Assembly: GCA_964478705.1 (NCBI GenBank)
Contig: CAYZIR010000005.1
Location: forward strand, 508 to 64,507
From: an uncultured Candidatus Saccharibacteria bacterium
Lineage (GTDB): Bacteria > Patescibacteriota > Minisyncoccia > Phycocordibacterales > EsbW-18
Length of the DNA stretch: 64,000 nt
Reading direction: 5' to 3'
Shown here: positions 5,465 through 60,002 of the stretch, piece by piece
Layout: each line of letters opens with the position of its first letter
How positions within the stretch are numbered: position 1 is the first letter of the stretch
The notes under the pieces: generated by a model
Seen by the model: only the letters and a program-made list of their open reading frames with translations
Told to the model about the DNA's origin: nothing
The model's database searches: none
Translations under genes and position numbers: made by a program

Positions 5465-5713
5465 CTAAAAACTGAAGAGATTTTTCACATTTGTTTGTGT
5501 TTCCTGGAAACCACCATACACGCCCTGAAGCGTCTCGAGATATGGCTTGAGGAAAAACAAAGCGCCGAACGACACACCGAGAATAACGACCCAATAGACA
5601 ATTTTTATTGCTCTACCCCACAGTGCTCCTCGGTAGAGTTTTTTTAAAAGCTCATTATTTTCTTTTCCAAGCGCAAGCGATTCTCTGAGCATTCGCTGTT
5701 CTTCGGGATTCAT
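5465..5713 (-). CDS. Hypothetical small membrane protein
   Basis: ORF with one hydrophobic helix (IVYWVVILGVSFGALFFL); no recognisable family. Confidence 0.35.
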   Translation of the reverse strand: MNPEEQRMLRESLALGKENNELLKKLYRGALWGRAIKIVYWVVILGVSFGALFFLKPYLETLQGVYGGFQETQTNVKNLFSF

Positions 5714-5828
5714 GACTGAATTATATCATGCATCATTATGATATAGTCGTTTTACGCCCTCATATGAGTACATATGAGATCGGCGTTCGGACAGAATAAA
5801 AGCAAGCTTTCATTCTGCATCCTCACTT

Positions 5829-5916
5829 GCCCTCATAGTTCAAAGCCGACGCTACGAAGTAGGTCTACTCCCCGATTCACGCCTCGCGTGGCGTCGGGGC
5901 TGATAAGAAGGTGTAC
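5829..5916 (+). repeat. Partial tRNA-Arg 5' copy (nt 1-15) followed by a 60-nt GC-rich hairpin insert
   Basis: GCCCTCATAGTTCAA (5829..5843) is identical to tRNA-Arg nt 1-15; insert AGCCGACGCTACGAAG...GGCGTCGGGGCTGA (5844..5903) shares the ends AGCCGACGCT / GCGTCGGGGCTGA with the Phe and Thr inserts. Confidence 0.7.
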
Positions 5917-5918
5917 GC

Positions 5919-5990
5919 GCCCTCATAGTTCAACGGATAGAACAACTCCGTCCTAAGGAGTGGATCTAGGTTCAATTCCTGGTGAGGGCA
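5919..5990 (+). tRNA. tRNA-Arg (anticodon CCT)
   Basis: GCCCTCA acceptor pairs with TGAGGGC; anticodon stem ACTCC/GGAGT; loop GTCCTAA. Confidence 0.85.
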
Positions 5991-12710: not shown

Positions 12711-15590
12711 TTATTGGCACGATTCACACGTTGGGTCATCCAATTTACAGAGCTTCAGTGTCTGTGTTTGCTGTTGGACGCTCGTTGTGCGCATCACAGG
12801 CACGGTGACGGGTTCGGATGCAGAAATTTCTGCTTTTATGCTTGCAACCGCCTCTTCGGCAACGATACGTTCATGCACCGTCGACGAAAGATTTTGTTTT
12901 TCAAGTGCCACCGTGCTCTTTTCGATAGCAGACGCACCAAGAGAACGGAGATAGTAGGTTGTTTTGACTCCCATTTGCCATGCAAGCTGGTAGACGTCAG
13001 ACAGTTTTGCTCCCGATGTGCCTGAGAAGAAAATATTGAACGACTGGCTTTGGTCAATCCACTTGCCTCGATATGCCGTCGCTTTGACAAGAAATGCCGG
13101 GTCAATTGCAAAAACTTCTTTATGCTTTTCCTTAATCCACGCTGGAATCGATGAGATAGCATCGAGACTTCCTTCTGCTCCTTTAATCATTTCAAGCATT
13201 TCGCTATTCCAGAGCCCCTCTTTTTTAAGATCGTCGACAAGATAGTTATTGAAAACAATGAAGTCACCACTGATATTTGCTTTCACATAAATATTCTTGT
13301 AAATCGGCTCAATGGTTGGGAAACAACCAGCGATATTTGCAATCGTTGCTGTCGGTGCCATTGCCATACAGTTGCTGTTGCGCATACCATATTTTTTCAC
13401 CGCATCACGCACAACGCTCCAATTGAGTTTTGCTGTTCGCGATACGAGTATTTCCTCCCCACGATCGCGGGCGAGCAAATCGAGTGTGTCGACAGGGAAA
13501 ATCCCGCGATCCCATTTTGAGCCCGCGTAGGTCTCGTAGGTGCCACGCTCGCGTGCAAGCTCGGATGAAGCAAGAATCGCATAGTACGAAATCATTTCCA
13601 TACTTTCATCAGCAAAGCGAATACACTCTTCCGATTCAAATTTCAAATCTTGGAGGTACAGCGCATCTTGGAAGCCCATGATACCCAAGCCCACAGGTCG
13701 GTGGCGCATATTCGATTTTCTGGTTTCCGGAATCGGATAGTAGTTCAAATCGATCACGTTATCGAGCATGCGCATCGCAAGTGTTGCCGATTCTTTAATG
13801 CGTGCTTCATCGAGTTTACCGTTGACGATGTGCTCAGCAAGATTGATTGAACCCAAGTTACAGACGGCAACTTCATCGTCAGGTGCGTTGTTCAATGTAA
13901 TCTCGGTGCAGAGGTTTGAGTTGTGTACAACGCCAATATGGTCTTGCGGGCTACGAATGTTGGATGTGTCTTTGAATGTAATCCATGGGTGTCCTGTCTC
14001 AAAAAGTTGTGTGAGTACTTTTTTCCAAAGATCGCGTGCCTTAATTTGCACGAATGTTGTGAGTTTCCCTTCGGCACCAAGCGCTTCATATTCTGCGTAT
14101 CGAGCGCTGAATGCAGAACCATACAAATCAGGAAGCTCCGGTGTTTCATCTGGAGAAAAGAGCGACCACATTTCATCGTCGCGAACACGCTTCATGAATT
14201 CATCTGGAATCCAAAGTGCCGTGTTCAAATCTGGTGTGCGTCGTCGTTCGTCACCAGTGTTCTTGCGAAGTTCAAGAAAATCTTCAACGTCGGCGTGCCA
14301 CGGTTCAAGATACACCGCACATGCACCGCGCCTGCGACCACTTCGGTTGATACACACAACAGTTGAGTCAAGAATTTTCAAAAATGGAATGAGGCCGTTA
14401 CTGTCGATACCGGTTGATTTGATGCGAGATCCAGTTGCACGAAGCTTTGTCCAGCTGTAGCCAACACCACCGTCAAATTTTGCCATGTGCGAATAATCTT
14501 CATATGCCTTGAAGATGCTGTGGAGATCGTCTCCTGTAACACCGAGGTAGCAGGATGAGAGCTGAGAGTGTGGCGTACCTGCGTTAAAGAGCGTTGGCGT
14601 CGACGGCACATAGCGAAGCGCTGACATAAGGTTATAAAACTCAATCGCACGAGCTTCTTTATCGCTTTCAAGGAGTGAAAGTCCCATCGCAACACGCATC
14701 CACATCATTTGAGGCGCTTCAAGATAGATATGGCGCTTGCGGTCACGCTTGTCGCGAAGCAAATAGCGGTCTGCGAGCGTCTGTGTACCGAGGTAGCGGA
14801 GCATATCATCTCGCGACGGCTCAAGCGCCTGCGCAAGACGCACAAGATCAAACTCGCCCATTCGAGTATCGGTGATACCAAGATCGATTCCTTTTTTAAT
14901 TGATGCAATAAATCCCTGACGATATGCATCAGCGAACGCGCCATTTGATGGATCGGTCACGTCCATCGTGTCCGGATAGACAGACAGTTCAAGTGCCGTG
15001 CGCGATGCGAGAAGTGAGTACGCTGGGTCACGCTCGATAAATGAACGCGCAACAAGTGCAACGGTGTGAGAAAGATCGCGCATCGACATGCCTTCATACA
15101 TTTCTCGCTCTGCTTGCGCGACCAACTCATCAATATCAATATCGCGTTCGATGCCACGAGAAGATTTTGTGAACAGTCCGCGCAGGAAATCTCGCGTCAC
15201 TGAAATACGTTCTCCACCGGCGATCGTCACGAAAAATTCGCGACGTTCAATTTTTTCAACAACAACTTCCTGTTTCTCTTCACGAATTTTTGCGTGCTCG
15301 TATCGATAGACGATGTACGATTTCGCAACCTCAAAAAACCCTTTCTGCATGAGGGCACGCTCAACCATGTCCTGCACTTCTTCAACCGCAGGAATGTAGG
15401 TCTCGCCAACCGCATTTGCACGTTCAACAAGGTCGGCAACAACAATATCAGAAACCATCTCTGCATCTTTCTCTCTCTTTTCATTGAGCACATCAAGGAA
15501 TGCTCGCTCAATCGCATGCGTGATCTTCTCTTGCTCAAACGGTACAATCTTGCCTCGTCGCTTGCGAACTTCCTTGATGATTGGATGCAT
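12711..15590 (-). CDS. nrdA: Ribonucleotide reductase class Ia large (alpha) subunit with N-terminal ATP-cone
   Basis: ATP-cone (KRRGKIVPFEQEKITHAIERAF), NrdA catalytic barrel motifs, C-terminal Cys tail (CKLDDPTCESCQ). Confidence 0.92.
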   Translation of the reverse strand: MHPIIKEVRKRRGKIVPFEQEKITHAIERAFLDVLNEKREKDAEMVSDIVVADLVERANAVGETYIPAVEEVQDMVERALMQKGFFEVAKSYIVYRYEHAKIREEKQEVVVEKIERREFFVTIAGGERISVTRDFLRGLFTKSSRGIERDIDIDELVAQAEREMYEGMSMRDLSHTVALVARSFIERDPAYSLLASRTALELSVYPDTMDVTDPSNGAFADAYRQGFIASIKKGIDLGITDTRMGEFDLVRLAQALEPSRDDMLRYLGTQTLADRYLLRDKRDRKRHIYLEAPQMMWMRVAMGLSLLESDKEARAIEFYNLMSALRYVPSTPTLFNAGTPHSQLSSCYLGVTGDDLHSIFKAYEDYSHMAKFDGGVGYSWTKLRATGSRIKSTGIDSNGLIPFLKILDSTVVCINRSGRRRGACAVYLEPWHADVEDFLELRKNTGDERRRTPDLNTALWIPDEFMKRVRDDEMWSLFSPDETPELPDLYGSAFSARYAEYEALGAEGKLTTFVQIKARDLWKKVLTQLFETGHPWITFKDTSNIRSPQDHIGVVHNSNLCTEITLNNAPDDEVAVCNLGSINLAEHIVNGKLDEARIKESATLAMRMLDNVIDLNYYPIPETRKSNMRHRPVGLGIMGFQDALYLQDLKFESEECIRFADESMEMISYYAILASSELARERGTYETYAGSKWDRGIFPVDTLDLLARDRGEEILVSRTAKLNWSVVRDAVKKYGMRNSNCMAMAPTATIANIAGCFPTIEPIYKNIYVKANISGDFIVFNNYLVDDLKKEGLWNSEMLEMIKGAEGSLDAISSIPAWIKEKHKEVFAIDPAFLVKATAYRGKWIDQSQSFNIFFSGTSGAKLSDVYQLAWQMGVKTTYYLRSLGASAIEKSTVALEKQNLSSTVHERIVAEEAVASIKAEISASEPVTVPVMRTTSVQQQTQTLKLCKLDDPTCESCQ

Positions 15591-54227: not shown

Positions 54228-54734
54228 CTACAATCCAATAAACATTGCCAATCCGCGCCATGAAGACATAAAATCTTCTTTTGGCATACAAAGGTTCGGT
54301 CCAACTTCTGGGTCATGGTACAAAAAACCGCGCTCATCGCTCCCGACGACAAGAACCGTGTGGTATGAACCATTGTTTTTCTTAAGAGACACGATCGGAA
54401 GTCCGTTGCGTTCATGAGATTTTCGTATTTTTTCGTATCCTTCGTTTCGCAAACGCGTTTCTTCTTCGGGATCCTTGTTTCGAAATTCTTCTCGATGCGC
54501 GGGCACGCCATACTTTTTTGCGAGCTCGATGATTACATCGTGCTTCCATCCTCGCTCACAAAACCCGCCCACTGCAGAAGCTTCATCAAGAAGTTCGTTA
54601 ATCGTTCGCCCCTCAAGTTTCCCGTAGTACGAGAGAGCCATAAAAAGATTCACGATTGTGCACGCGCGAGGACGCCATATCTCTGGGAGAGAGAAATCGT
54701 ATTGAGAAAGATATGGGACGGGCAGATTTTGCAT
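54228..54734 (-). CDS. C39-like papain-fold cysteine peptidase domain protein
   Basis: Cys in PRACTIVNLFMAL, His in YHTVLVVG, Asp in FLYHDP; peptidase_C39_2 / YvpB-like arrangement. Confidence 0.5.
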   Translation of the reverse strand: MQNLPVPYLSQYDFSLPEIWRPRACTIVNLFMALSYYGKLEGRTINELLDEASAVGGFCERGWKHDVIIELAKKYGVPAHREEFRNKDPEEETRLRNEGYEKIRKSHERNGLPIVSLKKNNGSYHTVLVVGSDERGFLYHDPEVGPNLCMPKEDFMSSWRGLAMFIGL

Positions 54735-54786: not shown

Positions 54787-55356
54787 TCAGTCTTCTTGTA
54801 CCCCGCATCGCGCAACAACTTGGATATAACTCTCGGTTCTGAACAGCTCGGACGGCTCACATACGATTCCAGGCAAATTCATCCCATCAAGACAAAGCAC
54901 GTAGTGCATGTTTTCACCAGGAATGGACAGTGGTTTGTGCGGGAAAATGAGCTTACGCCCCTCCATTGTCTTGCGGTTATGCGGTTGGAAAAATGCCACT
55001 GCATCTTCCCACGTCGGGCGCTCAAGACCTTCATCCTTGATAGCCTTTAGTATTTGTGGGAAAGAAAGTCCGTTAGGAAGTTCGAGAATTCGAACCTCTA
55101 CACGACGTCTCTTTTGAGTTGGCACAAGTTTATTCGAGCTGAGCATGAGGTCAGCACGCGGACTGAACGAAAGTTTCAACACTTCAGCAAGCGACCGATA
55201 CCGCCCGAGTGTAAGCATGAAGGTCGGCCACGGATTTTCCCGACGCATAAACCTTTGAAGCGCTTCTGCCCACTCGTGAGCAACCTTTTTGTTACTAGAC
55301 CCCAAGCGATCGAACAGATCCTTAAGGCTACCGCTGACTTCCCATACCTCTAACGC
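54787..55356 (-). CDS. Hypothetical protein (189 aa)
   Basis: Start reset to ATG 55356 (MNRALEVW) with AGGAGG 5 nt upstream; no recognisable family. Confidence 0.45.
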   Translation of the reverse strand, partial: ALEVWEVSGSLKDLFDRLGSSNKKVAHEWAEALQRFMRRENPWPTFMLTLGRYRSLAEVLKLSFSPRADLMLSSNKLVPTQKRRRVEVRILELPNGLSFPQILKAIKDEGLERPTWEDAVAFFQPHNRKTMEGRKLIFPHKPLSIPGENMHYVLCLDGMNLPGIVCEPSELFRTESYIQVVARCGVQED

Positions 55357-55518
55357 ACGGTTCATACAACCTCCTTTAAGGTTGTGCCATAGGGCCACCA
55401 AAATGGCAGTCATAGCACGTAACGCTCCATGGAGTGAAGAGCTATGTGCTATGACCACCGTACACAACAACAAAGAACACTGAGAGCGTTATACTCCTCT
55501 CCCATCTTCGGGTCAAGG

Positions 55519-55556: not shown

Positions 55557-57950
55557 TTAGCGCACCTCCCATCCCTTTCCGCGAATCTCATCCTCAATCT
55601 TACCCATGATCTCACTCACCTCAACATCAGAGAGCGTTTTTTCGTTCGATTGAAAGACGATGTGATATGCGTATGATGTTCTTCCCTCTTTGGTGAATGT
55701 ATCGAAAAGATCCAACCGAGCAAGAAGTTTGCCAGCATGACTTTTGATGACGCCTTCGAGATCTTCTGAGCTGTTGGTTGTTGGTTGTTGGTTGTTGGTT
55801 CCCCCGACCCATACTGCAATGTCACGAAGGATAAAAGGATAGACCGAGATCGGCGCGAATGTCATGTTTGGCAAACGTGGCAAGTCGCCGTACGAGTCAG
55901 GAGTTGGAAGCGATTTGATCGTTTTTGAAAGGGATGCGGTGGCAATGTTTGCTCGCTTCATCCATACAAGCGGAGAAGTGGAGGTCGTCGTCACTGCTGC
56001 AATTGCAGCATCAAGATCTCTGCCCTTTTCTGTCGCAATCCCAATTTGTTGTTCCTCACCAGTCTTACTAAATATGGTGCCAATTTCGAAAATTCGTACA
56101 GCATCGACGCCAATGAGCGGCCTATTTTTTTGGTTGAGCTCAAGGGCAGCCTTTAAACCTTCTACGAGTGACGAACGAAGATATTTTTTATCATTAGCAA
56201 TCGGGTTCGCTACTTCAATTTCACCATCGTCTTGAAATGAGTATGTCGACACCTCGGAAAAGCCGGCATCAACAAGCGCTCGGCGGACGAGCGCTTTGTA
56301 GTATTCGTTCTTGTTGACCGCAGGTGTGAATCCGTCGAAAGGCAACGGTGTTGATGGAATCGATTCAAGACCTTTGAGCCGGCCGATTTCTTCGATCAAA
56401 TCTTCTTTGATACGGATGTCGATGCGCGGCGCGGGAACTGTCACCACAAAGCGTGGTTCGTTGTTCGTGATGATGCGACGATAGCCGACGATATTTTCAA
56501 ATGCCTTGGAACCAGAAAGATCTTCAATGACGACTTCGCCCTTATCCCATTTTCCTGATGCATGAAGGATTTTCCCTTCACCAAGATAGATGCCGTTGTG
56601 ATCGATACCTGCCGAGAGCTTTGTCCCTGCCATGAATTCATGCGAGACACTTGTCTGACGAACTTGGTCGATACCAAGACTTTCAATATGTTCTGTCGAT
56701 CCATCACCCTTTCGATCTGAGAATACGATGTCTCCCGCACGAAGATCATTTGCCTCAACCGGCGCACTAAAAACAAACTGATCAACAGCCATACGCGGAA
56801 TTGCGATTCCAGCTTGTGCGTAGAGATATGCGACCAAAGATGAGCAGTCGAAAGCTCTTGGCGCATCACTCAAAACACTTGCACCGTATTTGTATGGAGC
56901 GCCAACCAAGGTTGGAGCAAGTTTCAAAATCTGTTCAAGCGGCTGTATGTAGGTGTATTCAAAACCAAGACGCTTGAAGTAGTCTTCGACCTCACTTTGA
57001 GAACACGTCGTGCCGAGCGCTGTGTTAATTTCCGAAAGTGAGACGCCAACAACGTAGAGATTCTTTTTGTTTGGATACGACTCAACAATGTCTTGTGCGA
57101 CTTTTCCATTCGCGAGCTCTTCAATGAGTGCCGAAAGACGCTCCATAGCAATCGCAGTAAGTTCAGGACTGATTCCCTGCTCGAATCGGATTGACGCATC
57201 GGTGCGAAGTCCGAGCTTCTTTGATGTCTTGCGAATGTTTACGGGATCAAAATTGCAGACCGAAAGAACGATGCGTGTCGTGTTCGCATCAATACCCGAT
57301 GTCGAACCGCCTTTTACGCCAGCAATATCGAGTGCTTTCTCGCTGTCGCTGATAACAAGAACGTCTGGGTTCAGTACGAATTCCTTACCATCAAGGGTGG
57401 TGATTGTTTCATCTTCTTTTGCTGAACGTATTGAAAGAGCTGTTGGTTGTGAGTTGTTGGTTGTGAGTTTGTCATAGTCGAATGCGTGAACCGGCTGACC
57501 TGTTTCGAGCATCGTGAGGTTCGTTGCATCAACAACGTTGTTGATCGAACGCTGTCCGTGTGCAGCAAGTTTTATTTTGAGCCATTCGGGAGATTCGCCG
57601 ATTGTGACACCTTCGACATAGCGCTTCATTGCGCGTGGAACGAGCTTTGAGTTTTCGATGGTAAGCGAAAGATGATCGCTTGTTGAAATACCTGAGTCGG
57701 TTTTTGGATGAGCCTCAGGAATGTTTGCTGTGACATTGAGAAGCGCGGCGACTTCACGAGCGATACCGTGGTATGAAAAACCATCGTGGGAACGGTTTGG
57801 AAGCACTTTGATATCGAGAATCGTATCGCTGCCGTGTGACTCGGTTCCGTCGATTTCAAATGCATGCATCGTAATCGTGCGCGACAAATCAGCAACCGAT
57901 GGAAGCGGTTTGTCGAAATATTCCTGAAGCCATGCGTAGGAGAATTTCAT
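55557..57950 (-). CDS. pheT: Phenylalanyl-tRNA synthetase beta subunit carrying an inserted NlpC/P60 domain and two in-frame microsatellite insertions
   Basis: B1 and B3/4 (..PEWLKIKLAAHGQRSINNVVDATN..), B5 (..VEDYFKRLGF..), B6/7 (..VTVPAPRIDIRIKEDLIEEIGRLKG..), FDX-ACB C-terminus. aa ~340-490 (nt ~56481..56933) carry APYKYGAS..FDCSSLVAYLY..AGDIVFS..HNGIYLGEGKILHAS. Repeat-coded peptides TTNNSQPT (nt 57441..57464) and GGTNNQQPTTN (nt 55770..55802). Confidence 0.85.
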   Translation of the reverse strand: MKFSYAWLQEYFDKPLPSVADLSRTITMHAFEIDGTESHGSDTILDIKVLPNRSHDGFSYHGIAREVAALLNVTANIPEAHPKTDSGISTSDHLSLTIENSKLVPRAMKRYVEGVTIGESPEWLKIKLAAHGQRSINNVVDATNLTMLETGQPVHAFDYDKLTTNNSQPTALSIRSAKEDETITTLDGKEFVLNPDVLVISDSEKALDIAGVKGGSTSGIDANTTRIVLSVCNFDPVNIRKTSKKLGLRTDASIRFEQGISPELTAIAMERLSALIEELANGKVAQDIVESYPNKKNLYVVGVSLSEINTALGTTCSQSEVEDYFKRLGFEYTYIQPLEQILKLAPTLVGAPYKYGASVLSDAPRAFDCSSLVAYLYAQAGIAIPRMAVDQFVFSAPVEANDLRAGDIVFSDRKGDGSTEHIESLGIDQVRQTSVSHEFMAGTKLSAGIDHNGIYLGEGKILHASGKWDKGEVVIEDLSGSKAFENIVGYRRIITNNEPRFVVTVPAPRIDIRIKEDLIEEIGRLKGLESIPSTPLPFDGFTPAVNKNEYYKALVRRALVDAGFSEVSTYSFQDDGEIEVANPIANDKKYLRSSLVEGLKAALELNQKNRPLIGVDAVRIFEIGTIFSKTGEEQQIGIATEKGRDLDAAIAAVTTTSTSPLVWMKRANIATASLSKTIKSLPTPDSYGDLPRLPNMTFAPISVYPFILRDIAVWVGGTNNQQPTTNSSEDLEGVIKSHAGKLLARLDLFDTFTKEGRTSYAYHIVFQSNEKTLSDVEVSEIMGKIEDEIRGKGWEVR

Positions 57951-57953
57951 AAT

Positions 57954-58457
57954 TTATTTGAGAGTATATGAATGTTCAACCGTATCGGTCTGGCTTGTCG
58001 AAACGTTCCAGATGCTTTCTCTCATCGTGAGAAGTGCTGACTGATTCTTGAGATCAATCTTGAGAACATAATCTGACTCCGGACCATCACCCCCACCAGC
58101 TGCTTCAAGTGAAGATCCTGACCATGCGGTGATACCAAAATGATATGGACGAACCATTGGGTAATACTGTCCGTTATCCTGCAACTGAAGTACGACGGCT
58201 CTGTATTCATCGCATGTCATGTCAATCTGATGACAGTAGATCTGAGTCGAGTGGGCAGCCTTGGCCGGCACCGGACCATTCTCGTCAACCGTCCACGAAC
58301 CGCTGATACTGATCCACTGATCTCCCGGAGTGCCACCACTATCGAATTCCATCGGAATAGACCCGACAAGGTCGCTAATGCCGACCGACGTACGACCGCA
58401 CATCCAAATGACTACGGCAACAATAACGACAATGAGACCGATGATGATTTTTTTCAT
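57954..58457 (-). CDS. Hypothetical membrane-anchored protein (167 aa)
   Basis: N-terminal TM then soluble domain; no recognisable family. Confidence 0.4.
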   Translation of the reverse strand: MKKIIIGLIVVIVAVVIWMCGRTSVGISDLVGSIPMEFDSGGTPGDQWISISGSWTVDENGPVPAKAAHSTQIYCHQIDMTCDEYRAVVLQLQDNGQYYPMVRPYHFGITAWSGSSLEAAGGGDGPESDYVLKIDLKNQSALLTMRESIWNVSTSQTDTVEHSYTLK

Positions 58458-58459
58458 AG

Positions 58460-59317
58460 TTAGAACTGATCAGTTACACGAAGATCGCCCGAGTAGAGCA
58501 GTCGAACGTCGGGAAGTCCGTGACGAAGCACAAGCAAGCGATCGATACCGGCGCCAAACGCGAACCCACTCCACTCGCGCGGGTCGATACCCGCGCTCTC
58601 GAGCACTTTGGGGTGCACGAGTCCTGCGCCCATGATCTCAATCCATCCAGTGCCTTTGCAGACACTACACTCCCTCCCCGCCTCACCACCACAGCGGAAA
58701 CACGACACATCAACTTCAACGCCCGGTTCGACGAACGGGAAGTAACTTGGACGAAGTCGCACGATACTTTCGGCCGCGAAGAACTTTGAGAAGAATGTCT
58801 CGAGCGTTCCCTTGAGGTGCGCGAGGCTAATGTTCTTACCAACAACAAGTCCTTCGAGTTGATAGAACTGCGCTTCGTGTGTCGCGTCAGTTGCTTCGTA
58901 ACGATAGACCTTACCCGGCGCGATGATACGGAACGGCGGTTTGTGCGATTCCATGTAGCGCACCTGCACCGGTGAGGTGTGTGTGCGCAGAAGAGACGCG
59001 GAATCACGCGAATTTTTATTTGCGTTTATTTGCGTGGGCTCTTCATTCGCGTTTTTTGGCGTCTTCAACCAGAAGGTATCCCACATATCCCTAGCAGGGT
59101 GATGTTCCGGGATATTCAACGTATCAAAGTTGTAGTGTTCGGATTCAGCTTCAGGTCCTTCAGCGACCTCGAACCCCATCGAACCAAAAATGCCGATAAT
59201 ATCGGAAATAGCCAACGATATAGGGTGTTGATGGCCTTTTGGGTCGGTCATAGAGAAGCCCATTGTACGTTTACAAGTAGCTTTTTCCAAGTCGTCGCAC
59301 GTAATCCACTTGGTCAA
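58460..59317 (-). CDS. pheS: Phenylalanyl-tRNA synthetase alpha subunit (catalytic core only)
   Basis: Class II motifs (..FRCGGEAGRECSVCKGTGWIEIMGAGLVHPKVL..GFAFGAGIDRL..); lacks the N-terminal coiled coil. True start uncertain (59317 or internal Met). Confidence 0.85.
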   Translation of the reverse strand: MTKWITCDDLEKATCKRTMGFSMTDPKGHQHPISLAISDIIGIFGSMGFEVAEGPEAESEHYNFDTLNIPEHHPARDMWDTFWLKTPKNANEEPTQINANKNSRDSASLLRTHTSPVQVRYMESHKPPFRIIAPGKVYRYEATDATHEAQFYQLEGLVVGKNISLAHLKGTLETFFSKFFAAESIVRLRPSYFPFVEPGVEVDVSCFRCGGEAGRECSVCKGTGWIEIMGAGLVHPKVLESAGIDPREWSGFAFGAGIDRLLVLRHGLPDVRLLYSGDLRVTDQF

Positions 59318-59390: not shown

Positions 59391-60002
59391 ATGCCCGAAA
59401 CTCAAGGGTTGATTCGACCTGATCCGAGCGTAGTCATGCCCAGTACCCACGTCGCCCGTCAACGAAAACTGCCTGATGTGCGCAATGCAATCACGCACAA
59501 AGGTACGGTTGGTGAGCACGAAATCTACATCACCGCGGGGACGTACGACGACGGGACACTCGGTGAAGTGTTCATCATCATCTCGAAACAAGGTTCGACA
59601 ATTTCAGGACTCCTTGATGGTTTCGCGATTCTCTTCTCGGTTGCACTTCAATATGGTGTACCACTCGAGGTCATCGTCGAAAAACTCTGTCACACACGGT
59701 TCGAACCATCAGGGTTTACCAAGAACCCAAGGATTCCTATCGCAAAATCGATTTATGACTACATCGTACGCTGGCTTGCATCCAAGTTCTGTTCACCGGA
59801 TGTACAACAGGCTTTTGGTGTCATCAGGAACGATGCGACAGAACCTGAAACCTCAGTGACGGTGCAACATGCACCTACAAGCTCTCCGACCATTCGTCAT
59901 GGCGGTGACGGCATCAGTTGTCGTGTATGTGGCGGAATCACTGTTCGTAACGGTTCTTGTCACGTCTGCCCCAACTGTGGCAGCACAACCGGATGCAGTT
60001 AG
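59391..60002 (+). CDS. Stand-alone TSCPD-domain protein (class II RNR C-terminal-like) with C-terminal Cys4 zinc ribbon
   Basis: GEVFIIISKQGSTISGLLDGFAILFSVALQYGVPLEVIVEKLCHTRFEPSGFT resembles the NrdJ C-terminal region; CRVCGG..CHVCPNCG ribbon; GGAGG SD. Confidence 0.55.
   Translation: MPETQGLIRPDPSVVMPSTHVARQRKLPDVRNAITHKGTVGEHEIYITAGTYDDGTLGEVFIIISKQGSTISGLLDGFAILFSVALQYGVPLEVIVEKLCHTRFEPSGFTKNPRIPIAKSIYDYIVRWLASKFCSPDVQQAFGVIRNDATEPETSVTVQHAPTSSPTIRHGGDGISCRVCGGITVRNGSCHVCPNCGSTTGCS

Follow-up and report, generated by a model that had tools for sequence, protein, structure and literature searches.

An NlpC/P60 peptidase domain nested in the B5 domain of the phenylalanyl-tRNA synthetase beta subunit of Patescibacteria

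We analysed a 64,000-nucleotide stretch of DNA from an uncultured Candidatus Saccharibacteria bacterium (assembly GCA_964478705.1, contig CAYZIR010000005.1; hereafter the window) in which pheT, the gene for the beta subunit of phenylalanyl-tRNA synthetase (PheRS), carries an inserted domain. The inserted domain is almost certainly a complete, canonically ordered NlpC/P60 (C40) papain-like domain spliced into the B5 domain of PheT. Overall it is best explained as an autonomous cytoplasmic amidase module that is hosted in PheT, a reading on which our confidence is evenly divided. It is fairly probable that the domain is catalytically active and functionally autonomous.

Anatomy of the insert in PheT

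Window positions 55557-57950 on the minus strand form a single open reading frame (ORF) of 797 amino acids (aa) that encodes a bacterial PheRS beta subunit. The protein matched TIGR00472 (pheT_bact) at 424 bits against a cutoff of 402.65, and Pfam placed B3_4, B5, tRNA_synthFbeta and FDX-ACB on it in the expected order. An AlphaFold2 (AF2) model of the whole protein, built from an alignment of 120 sequences, had a mean predicted local distance difference test score (pLDDT) of 93 and a predicted template modelling score (pTM) of 0.76, and a Foldseek search of the PDB with this model returned bacterial PheRS beta chains as its top matches (E 2e-54 to 5e-39). Judged by these matches the ORF is a genuine bacterial PheT.

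The segment at 56481-56933 (minus strand) corresponds to aa 340-490 of PheT, and it was here that the original prediction, made from the DNA letters, had recognised an NlpC/P60 peptidase from its motifs. All of the quoted motifs are present, namely APYKYGAS at aa 351-358, FDCSSLVAYLY at 367-377 (with Cys369), AGDIVFS at 405-411 and the His-containing DHNGIYLGEGKILHAS at 450-465, which holds both His451 and His463. The identification was borne out by a hidden Markov model (HMM) search, in which PF00877 (NLPC_P60) matched at E 2e-16 and 60.3 bits against a gathering score of 23, the match being split into two stretches by an internal loop. After the PheT models, the best NCBIfam models on the protein were those of the RipC, RipB and p60 NlpC/P60 endopeptidases, and the usual P60 motifs PYxxG, DCS, PRxxxxQ, GDxVF and HxGxY are kept.

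The proposed insertion into PheT was also real, but its site had been placed between B5 and B6/7 and instead lies inside B5. Pfam matched B5 in two pieces, the second of which (aa 495-527) corresponds to profile positions 34-66 of 67. Because this second piece covers the end of the profile, the flank VTVPAPRIDIRIKEDLIEEIGRLKG is the second half of B5 and not B6/7. The insert occupies about aa 334-494 (56469-56951), in the B5 hairpin between '...RLGFEY' and 'RFVVTVPAPRIDIRI', and by this two-piece match the peptidase is nested inside B5, on a surface hairpin of that domain. The features of the gene, with the evidence for each, are as follows, dN/dS being the ratio of nonsynonymous to synonymous substitution rates.

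55557-57950, minus strand: pheT, PheRS beta subunit, 797 aa (ORF, TIGR00472, Pfam, AF2, Foldseek)
57066-57950, minus strand: B1 and B3/4 (editing) domains, aa 1-295 (Pfam B3_4 at aa 104-280, E 4.7e-61)
56952-57065, minus strand: B5, N-terminal half, aa 296-333, last residues ...KRLGFEYT (Pfam B5, two stretches)
56469-56951, minus strand: NlpC/P60 (C40) catalytic domain, complete, aa 334-494, in the B5 hairpin (PF00877, collinearity with 7cfl, Foldseek, dN/dS)
56844-56846, minus strand: codon TGC of the predicted catalytic nucleophile Cys369 in FDCSS (Cys in 117 of 118 insert-bearing homologues)
56613-56687, minus strand: family-specific extra loop or beta-hairpin, aa 422-446, between the GDIVFS and His strands (not in Acd24020)
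56598-56600, minus strand: codon of the predicted catalytic His451 in DHNGIY (His in 117 of 118; invariant in the loci)
56562-56564, minus strand: codon of the predicted third triad residue His463 in ILHAS (His in 105 of 118)
56361-56468, minus strand: B5, C-terminal half, aa 495-530, RFVVTVPAPRIDIRIKEDLIEEIGRLKG (Pfam B5 at aa 495-527, profile positions 34-66 of 67)
55881-56360, minus strand: B6/7 catalytic-like module, aa 531-690 (PF17759 at aa 531-665)
55560-55859, minus strand: B8 or FDX-ACB anticodon-binding domain, aa 698-797 (PF03147 at aa 702-793)

Structure prediction gave the same identity, the inserted part of the AF2 model having the NlpC/P60 fold of solved endopeptidases. Foldseek aligned it to C. 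difficile Acd24020 (7cfl) with a target template modelling (TM) score of 0.89-0.92, a root-mean-square deviation of 1.6-2.4 A and 28% identity. Further matches to the insert from the whole-protein model were Acd33800, AvPCP, NpPCP, YkfC and SAV0400; the top matches outside PheRS were all peptidoglycan endopeptidases, including NpPCP and the T. thermophilus DL-endopeptidase, and dozens more C40 structures were matched at E < 1e-5. In the model helix 369-379 opens with Cys369, and strands 451-457 and 460-465 carry His451 and His463, respectively; this non-permuted order Cys-His-His is the canonical one for NlpC/P60. Pairwise alignment showed the insert to be collinear with the entire Acd24020 catalytic domain apart from two additions: 'GAS-VLS-DAP' is longer by 4 residues, and some 25 residues (aa 422-446) form a loop ahead of the His strand. 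The longer loop, at which the full model has strands 419-422 and 427-430, varies in length, falls into two length classes and carries a conserved E-F-(M/L)-x-G-T motif. When B5 and the insert were modelled alone the pLDDT was 88.5 and the pTM 0.85, and because of these values the two are predicted to form one rigid module. The best Foldseek matches of this smaller model were 7cfl, 2evr, 4xcm, MepS, LytE, CwlO, RipA and RipB.

In agreement with the original prediction, the insert is not an ordinary PheT domain. No solved PheRS beta chain has a counterpart of it, these chains aligning in two blocks that flank the insert, and it is also missing from two relatives that are 78% identical to the window PheT. 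The label 'CHAP-like' that had been attached to it holds at the level of the clan only, as the domain is a canonical NlpC/P60 and the Pfam scan of PheT found no match to CHAP (PF05257) at E <= 0.1. The permuted relatives of NlpC/P60 (LRAT/H-RAS-like, YaeF/YiiX) were considered and rejected, given the order Cys369-His451-His463 and a YaeF match of only E 0.024 and 13.8 bits against a cutoff of 279. Pfam detected no SH3b, LysM or other wall-binding domain in PheT. No signal peptide was found on PheT, nor on the stand-alone module or the C39-like peptidase described below.

Conservation, loss and release of the module

Among the 120 best homologues of the whole PheT (43-89% identity, all from metagenome-assembled Patescibacteria) the combination of PheT and PF00877 was present in 118, with source names that include Pacebacteria, Paceibacterota, Campbellbacteria and Parcubacteria. 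A search with the insert only against 1.84 billion cluster representatives gave 65 matches at E <= 1e-30, and most of the best 150 matches in this search were PheTs of about 770-830 aa that were matched at about residues 330-500. The architecture is thus present in more than 100 divergent clusters.

The Cys/His/His triad, whose conservation in relatives the original prediction had marked for checking, was found to be retained. Cys369 and His451 are each kept in 117 of the 118 insert-bearing homologues and His463 in 105, the remainder having Phe, Tyr or Gln. Tyr353, Ser358, Gly381, Pro385 and Asp407 are each present in all 118, and Arg386 and Gln391 each in 117. Genome and metagenome scans (a single-protein scan of genome contigs alone gave 11) also yielded 78 non-redundant loci, with identities as low as 33%, and in these the Cys and His were invariant wherever the position was covered; the third triad position was His, with a few Tyr, Asn or Gln. 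Mean pairwise identity was 0.50-0.52 for the insert, 0.53 for B1 with B3/4, 0.54 for B5, 0.40 for the catalytic-like module and 0.53 for FDX-ACB. Compared with a homologue 89-91% identical to the window PheT (P0002, L103), dN/dS by the Nei-Gojobori method was 0.098 for the insert and 0.087 for the remaining PheT. By these measures purifying selection acts on the insert as strongly as on the essential synthetase domains, and the insert is apparently active as a peptidase. It looks like an old and mainly vertically inherited feature of many Patescibacteria of the Paceibacteria/Parcubacteria group. Distances of insert and host correlated with a Pearson coefficient of 0.51, against 0.70 for a host N-terminal/C-terminal control, which with a star-like phylogeny is a weak test of vertical inheritance.

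The two relatives without the insert are P0012 (631 aa) and P0013 (632 aa), which come from two independent assemblies. In both the domain is precisely gone, leaving a short ordinary B5 hairpin ('GF.HEV-KG-DTFVVT') with the other PheT domains intact. In a tree built without the insert they fell inside the insert-bearing clade, adjoining P0004, and therefore the absence is a secondary loss. Since these two close relatives lost the domain so precisely, aminoacylation can probably proceed in its absence.

Among the matches of the insert search were also complete proteins of 190-240 aa that consist of B5 and NlpC/P60 alone. These stand-alone modules begin at the first B5 strand, 'M..YR(V/I)G(L/I)S', and finish just past the last B5 helix. 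A dedicated search gave about 58 clusters of them, with source names that include Minisyncoccota, Parcubacteria and Wolfebacteria; the Cys, His and His are invariant or nearly so and B5 is always retained. In a neighbour-joining tree of modules, drawn without bootstrap support, the main stand-alone group formed one clade among the PheT-embedded modules and the stand-alone modules of L012 and L094 were placed elsewhere. As these two fall outside the main clade, the tree suggests at least three independent releases of the module from PheT. In L012 the module and a C39-like gene lie away from pheS, beside a RuvB-like gene. Separately, a subgroup of both embedded and stand-alone modules (L048, L068, L079, L082 and L094) was seen to have Ser in place of both Asp368 and Arg386, and Lys or Met in place of Gln391, with the Cys/His/His kept, and these changed substrate-side residues hint at a different substrate specificity.

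Two neighbours of pheT in the window bear on the context of the stand-alone genes.

58460-59317, minus strand: pheS, PheRS alpha subunit, upstream of pheT (PF01409, E 3e-94 at aa 26-285; TIGR00468 profile positions 67-322)
54228-54734, minus strand: C39-like (Peptidase_C39_2) cysteine peptidase, 168 aa (PF13529, E 1.3e-6; PF03412, E 1.8e-5)

In the loci L013/L014, L015/L016 and L017 the gene order is a PheS::FDX-ACB fusion, the stand-alone module, a Peptidase_C39_2 gene and gyrB, which is the synteny of the window (pheS, pheT, C39-like, gyrB). The PheS-like protein of these loci is 379-382 aa long and combines tRNA-synt_2d with FDX-ACB, the mitochondrial-type architecture, scoring 236 bits against a cutoff of 258 with TIGR00469 and 231 against 300 with SrmL. 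The start codon of the module overlaps the stop codon of the fusion. Within 10 kb on either side of the PheS::FDX-ACB stand-alone loci, in-house HMMs found no B1/B3/4 or B6/7 sequence, and the only other PheT remnant was B5 with the peptidase; B8 seems to have moved onto PheS in the fusion lineages. The stand-alone genes and the fusion appear to record a stepwise reduction of the heterotetrameric PheRS to a mitochondrial-type enzyme with the peptidase module as the surviving piece of PheT, which bears on how monomeric organellar PheRS could arise. The fusion was noted at 2909-4713 in L013, 8862-10669 in L015 and 8851-10672 in L017. PheS::FDX-ACB was also observed in L057, L061, L062, L070, L073, L075, L076 and L080, again with no full pheT within 10 kb on either side.

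The C39-like peptidase recurs beside both forms of the module. Using a family HMM, an orthologue was found within 400 bp downstream in 33 loci with PheT carrying the insert and within 2.7 kb in 4 more (37 of 56 evaluable), and adjacent to or near the module in 8 of the 12 evaluable stand-alone loci. Over both kinds of locus it counts as adjacent or near in 41 of 68 evaluable cases, and in about 60% of related loci it is the gene directly downstream. The gaps from pheT or the module to this gene are often -13 to +20 bp. Gln11, Cys25, His125 and Asp141 are conserved in 43 orthologues, and because this set is kept the protein looks like an active cytoplasmic cysteine peptidase. A homologue search from the window protein gave 6 matches, the family being too divergent for a word-index search; three of the 6 are on contigs whose lengths equal those of contigs with an insert-bearing PheT. 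The idea that the C39-like gene and the insert were lost together was dropped as not specific: the insert-less L018 and L019 lack the gene, but so do the nearest insert-bearing loci, L101 and L102.

Possible function of the module and its alternatives

A mechanism can be proposed for the module as an amidase that works independently of PheRS. His451 would deprotonate Cys369 at the start of its helix and His463 would orient His451; Cys369 would then attack an amide carbonyl to give a thioacyl enzyme, to be resolved by water as in DL-endopeptidases. The substrate would have to be cytoplasmic, because the module lacks a signal peptide and resides in a cytoplasmic enzyme. The likeliest candidate may be a small gamma-glutamyl- or isopeptide-linked peptide, for example an imported or recycled peptidoglycan stem peptide in an auxotrophic cell, since the module is most closely related to gamma-D-Glu-diamino-acid endopeptidases and retains the PR...Q and PYxxG motifs. 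The module would then be akin to the YkfC-type cytoplasmic muropeptide endopeptidases. By analogy with those relatives we put forward a muropeptide or gamma-glutamyl class of substrate only tentatively, and with more doubt than confidence. The working unit would be B5 with NlpC/P60 and not the whole PheRS, PheT serving mainly as a stably expressed host. B5 would be a probable structural platform and a possible partner in substrate binding, in a role like that of SH3b in YkfC and AvPCP, because the two parts are modelled as a rigid module and B5 is always retained. The C39-like peptidase, whose gene would be co-transcribed, would often act with the module and may make a second cleavage.

Autonomy of this kind is supported by the precise loss of the domain in P0012 and P0013, by the stand-alone modules with their triad and by the L012 pair lying away from pheS. 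Several observations count against it. The muropeptide idea is drawn solely from the nearest solved structures and profiles. Deeply diverged lineages still keep the module inside PheT, and where it was released it nearly always follows pheS directly, the stop codon of one gene overlapping the start codon of the other; residence in PheT and coupling to pheS also fit a continuing physical link with PheRS. The C39-like peptidase is not an obligatory partner, because it is absent from about 40% of loci, including those of the closest insert-bearing relatives L101 and L102, where gyrB comes straight after pheT. Its adjacency could also be in part an inherited synteny (pheS-pheT-C39x-gyrB, C39x being the C39-like gene).

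A continuing link with PheRS is the core of another explanation, in which the domain would be a tethered cysteine hydrolase acting on an activated phenylalanyl species or on mischarged tRNA. The candidate substrates would be Tyr-tRNAPhe, m-Tyr-tRNAPhe, N-acyl-Phe-tRNA or peptidyl-tRNA, and in a variant a thioester intermediate would serve to pass Phe from Phe-tRNA on to an acceptor. We consider such PheRS-coupled chemistry unlikely, even though the retention of the domain inside PheT in more than 100 divergent clusters, the usual translational coupling of the released module to pheS through overlapping stop and start codons and the constant company of B5 all speak for it. The monomeric PheS::FDX-ACB lineages have, within the 10 kb flanks of their loci, lost B3/4 and kept the module. 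In addition, at least 90% of these PheTs have Ser where the T. thermophilus protein has bGlu334, and canonical Tyr editing may be altered. Against this, the insert-less P0012 and P0013 share this serine (Ser230) with no replacement domain, and His155, Thr143 and Asn144 are conserved in a B3/4 domain that looks functional. Every one of the closest folds and profiles belongs to an amide-cleaving peptidoglycan endopeptidase, the insert keeps the usual P60 substrate-side motifs, the L012 module and C39-like pair is away from pheS, and we know of no NlpC/P60 enzyme that acts on tRNA esters. The most specific version of this explanation, that the module is a new kind of synthetase-associated catalytic domain in which Cys thioester chemistry hydrolyses or transfers tRNAPhe-linked aminoacyl or peptidyl groups, possibly with the C39-like protein as partner, and which was kept beside the monomeric PheRS since B3/4 was lost, strikes us as quite improbable. 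The original prediction had raised an amide or thioester substrate, with a deacylase as its example; taken together the evidence tilts somewhat toward an amidase that is independent of PheRS.

The remaining explanations fared worse. PheRS or the module might be released by lysis or unconventional export and cleave peptidoglycan of a host or of the cell itself, which could be useful to an episymbiotic Patescibacterium; Patescibacteria are commonly episymbionts and the nearest relatives of the domain are true peptidoglycan DL-endopeptidases. We rate this extracellular moonlighting as very unlikely, as PheT, the stand-alone module and the C39-like protein have no signal peptide or cell-wall-binding domain, an essential cytoplasmic enzyme would be a poor export route and nothing in the loci examined suggests a dedicated secretion system. 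Even less credit goes to a non-catalytic role, whether structural, binding or regulatory, in which the triad would be vestigial and the domain might for example replace the missing B2 or coiled-coil tRNA-binding appendages. The window PheRS does lack both B2 and the PheS coiled coil, and pseudo-enzyme NlpC/P60 domains do exist (RipD, in NCBIfam), but a Cys and His that are near-invariant over more than 190 sequences are hard to explain without catalysis, B2 is likewise missing from the insert-less P0012 and P0013, whose other domains are intact, and the stand-alone module persists without the rest of PheT. An artefact or selfish element (an assembly chimera, an intein or a mobile insertion without host function) has in its favour that the insertion is clean, in frame and precisely losable. 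We regard it as practically negligible: the same architecture recurs in over 100 independent clusters (NCBI, JGI, ENA and Logan assemblies), dN/dS is 0.098 and the insertion site is identical in all sequences. An intein or mobile insertion was likewise rejected in the Pfam scan, which found no intein, Hint or endonuclease family at E <= 0.1, the whole insert being accounted for by the NlpC/P60 fold.

Compared with known systems, the insert is closest to the C40 DL-endopeptidases (Acd24020 7cfl, B. subtilis LytE and CwlO, E. coli MepS), with which it shares the fold (TM 0.8-0.9), the triad order and the P60 motifs at 20-28% identity. Unlike them it has no signal peptide or wall-binding repeats, is nested in a domain of another protein and has two family loops, the 4 aa in GAS-VLS-DAP and a hairpin of 20-40 aa before the His strand. 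The original prediction had called an NlpC/P60 domain in a cytoplasmic enzyme unexpected, and the location is indeed unusual, but it has precedent in cytoplasmic members of the family such as YkfC of Bacillus, which acts on L-Ala-gamma-D-Glu-L-Lys. YkfC, AvPCP and NpPCP (PDB 3h41, 2hbw and 2evr) also pair NlpC/P60 with a packed accessory domain, and our models matched them at E 1e-7 to 1e-9. Their accessory domain is an N-terminal SH3b, whereas here the winged-helix-like B5 topologically encloses the peptidase, and no ykfABCD-like operon is present. E. coli Gsp (glutathionylspermidine synthetase/amidase) is a cytoplasmic CHAP-clan papain-like Cys amidase fused to an ATP-dependent ligase, and so resembles the PheT insert as a cysteine amidase of the same clan covalently joined to such a ligase. 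The Gsp amidase, however, is an N-terminal fusion that acts on the product of its own ligase, whereas here the domain is nested and a chemical link to Phe-AMP or Phe-tRNA would be hypothetical. The PheT is collinear with bacterial PheRS beta chains (T. thermophilus 1pys/2iy5, E. coli 3pco, S. haemolyticus 2rhs) in B1, B3/4, B5, B6/7 and B8 and likewise has pheS upstream; it differs from them in having no B2, about 160 aa inserted in B5 and Ser for Glu in the editing site. A released piece of PheT is also known in CtdA, a canavanyl-tRNA deacylase of the B3/B4 fold in which a PheT-derived domain lives as an independent protein (PMC12449066). CtdA differs in keeping its tRNA-editing fold, whereas the module here is B5 with a foreign peptidase.

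Full-text literature searches found no description of this architecture, of a stand-alone B5+NlpC/P60 family or of monomeric PheRS in bacteria of the candidate phyla radiation (CPR). Each of the two parts belongs to a familiar family, and PF00877 is already annotated on these proteins in the databases. What the combination adds is that, over a large branch of the CPR, a housekeeping synthetase houses an additional enzyme that is unrelated to it and apparently active, and this brings an unstudied activity to gene-poor organisms. This makes the module a concrete target for work on muropeptide or peptide salvage, or on translation quality control, in Patescibacteria. We also observed that NCBI names many of the insert-bearing PheTs 'C40 family peptidase' or 'PheT-related protein' and the stand-alone modules 'phenylalanyl-tRNA synthetase beta chain' or 'cell wall-associated NlpC family hydrolase'; P0003, P0042, P0057, P0295 and P0312 are examples of this inconsistent naming. 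Names of this kind can mislead estimates of the completeness and metabolism of CPR genomes.

The remaining PheRS and neighbouring genes

The PheRS of the window is minimal, with a PheT that lacks B2 and a PheS that lacks the N-terminal coiled coil. PheT begins with the B1 domain (MKFSYAWLQEYF...), Pfam found no tRNA_bind match to a B2 (OB-fold tRNA-binding) domain in it, and aa 40-42 aligned with position ~155-159 of full-length PheTs, which is to say that B2 is gone. In B3/4, alignment with the T. thermophilus protein equated His155 with bHis261 and T143/N144 with bT249/N250, all of which are conserved, and because these other editing residues are kept the domain looks functional. Ser230 (codon 57261-57263) stands in place of bGlu334, the residue that recognises the Tyr hydroxyl in the B3/4 editing site of T. 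thermophilus, and the editing specificity of these PheTs may differ from the canonical one. The listed PheS ORF begins at TTG and its relatives are only 245-263 aa long, and therefore the true start is probably internal, near Met19.

Three further ORFs flank these genes. Between pheS and pheT, at 57954-58457 (minus strand), an ORF of 167 aa has an N-terminal hydrophobic anchor and no Pfam or NCBIfam match. In L018, L019 and L101 pheS and pheT abut, and in L102 a homologue of this ORF (34% identical, 5480-5989) lies just upstream of pheT. Between pheT and the C39-like gene, at 54787-55473 (minus strand), an ORF of 228 aa gave no family match and no tblastn match in about 100 related loci; it may be specific to the lineage or not a real gene. 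Beside pheS, at 59391-60002 (plus strand), an ORF of 203 aa corresponds only to the C-terminal TSCPD and zinc ribbon part of a class II ribonucleotide reductase. It matches residues 670-862, at 52% identity, of the 862-aa reductase that occupies the same position in L019 and L101, with the catalytic part missing, and may be a truncated remnant or a piece of a split gene. A distant region resembling this reductase (24% identity) was found at 12894-14642 (minus strand) of the window.

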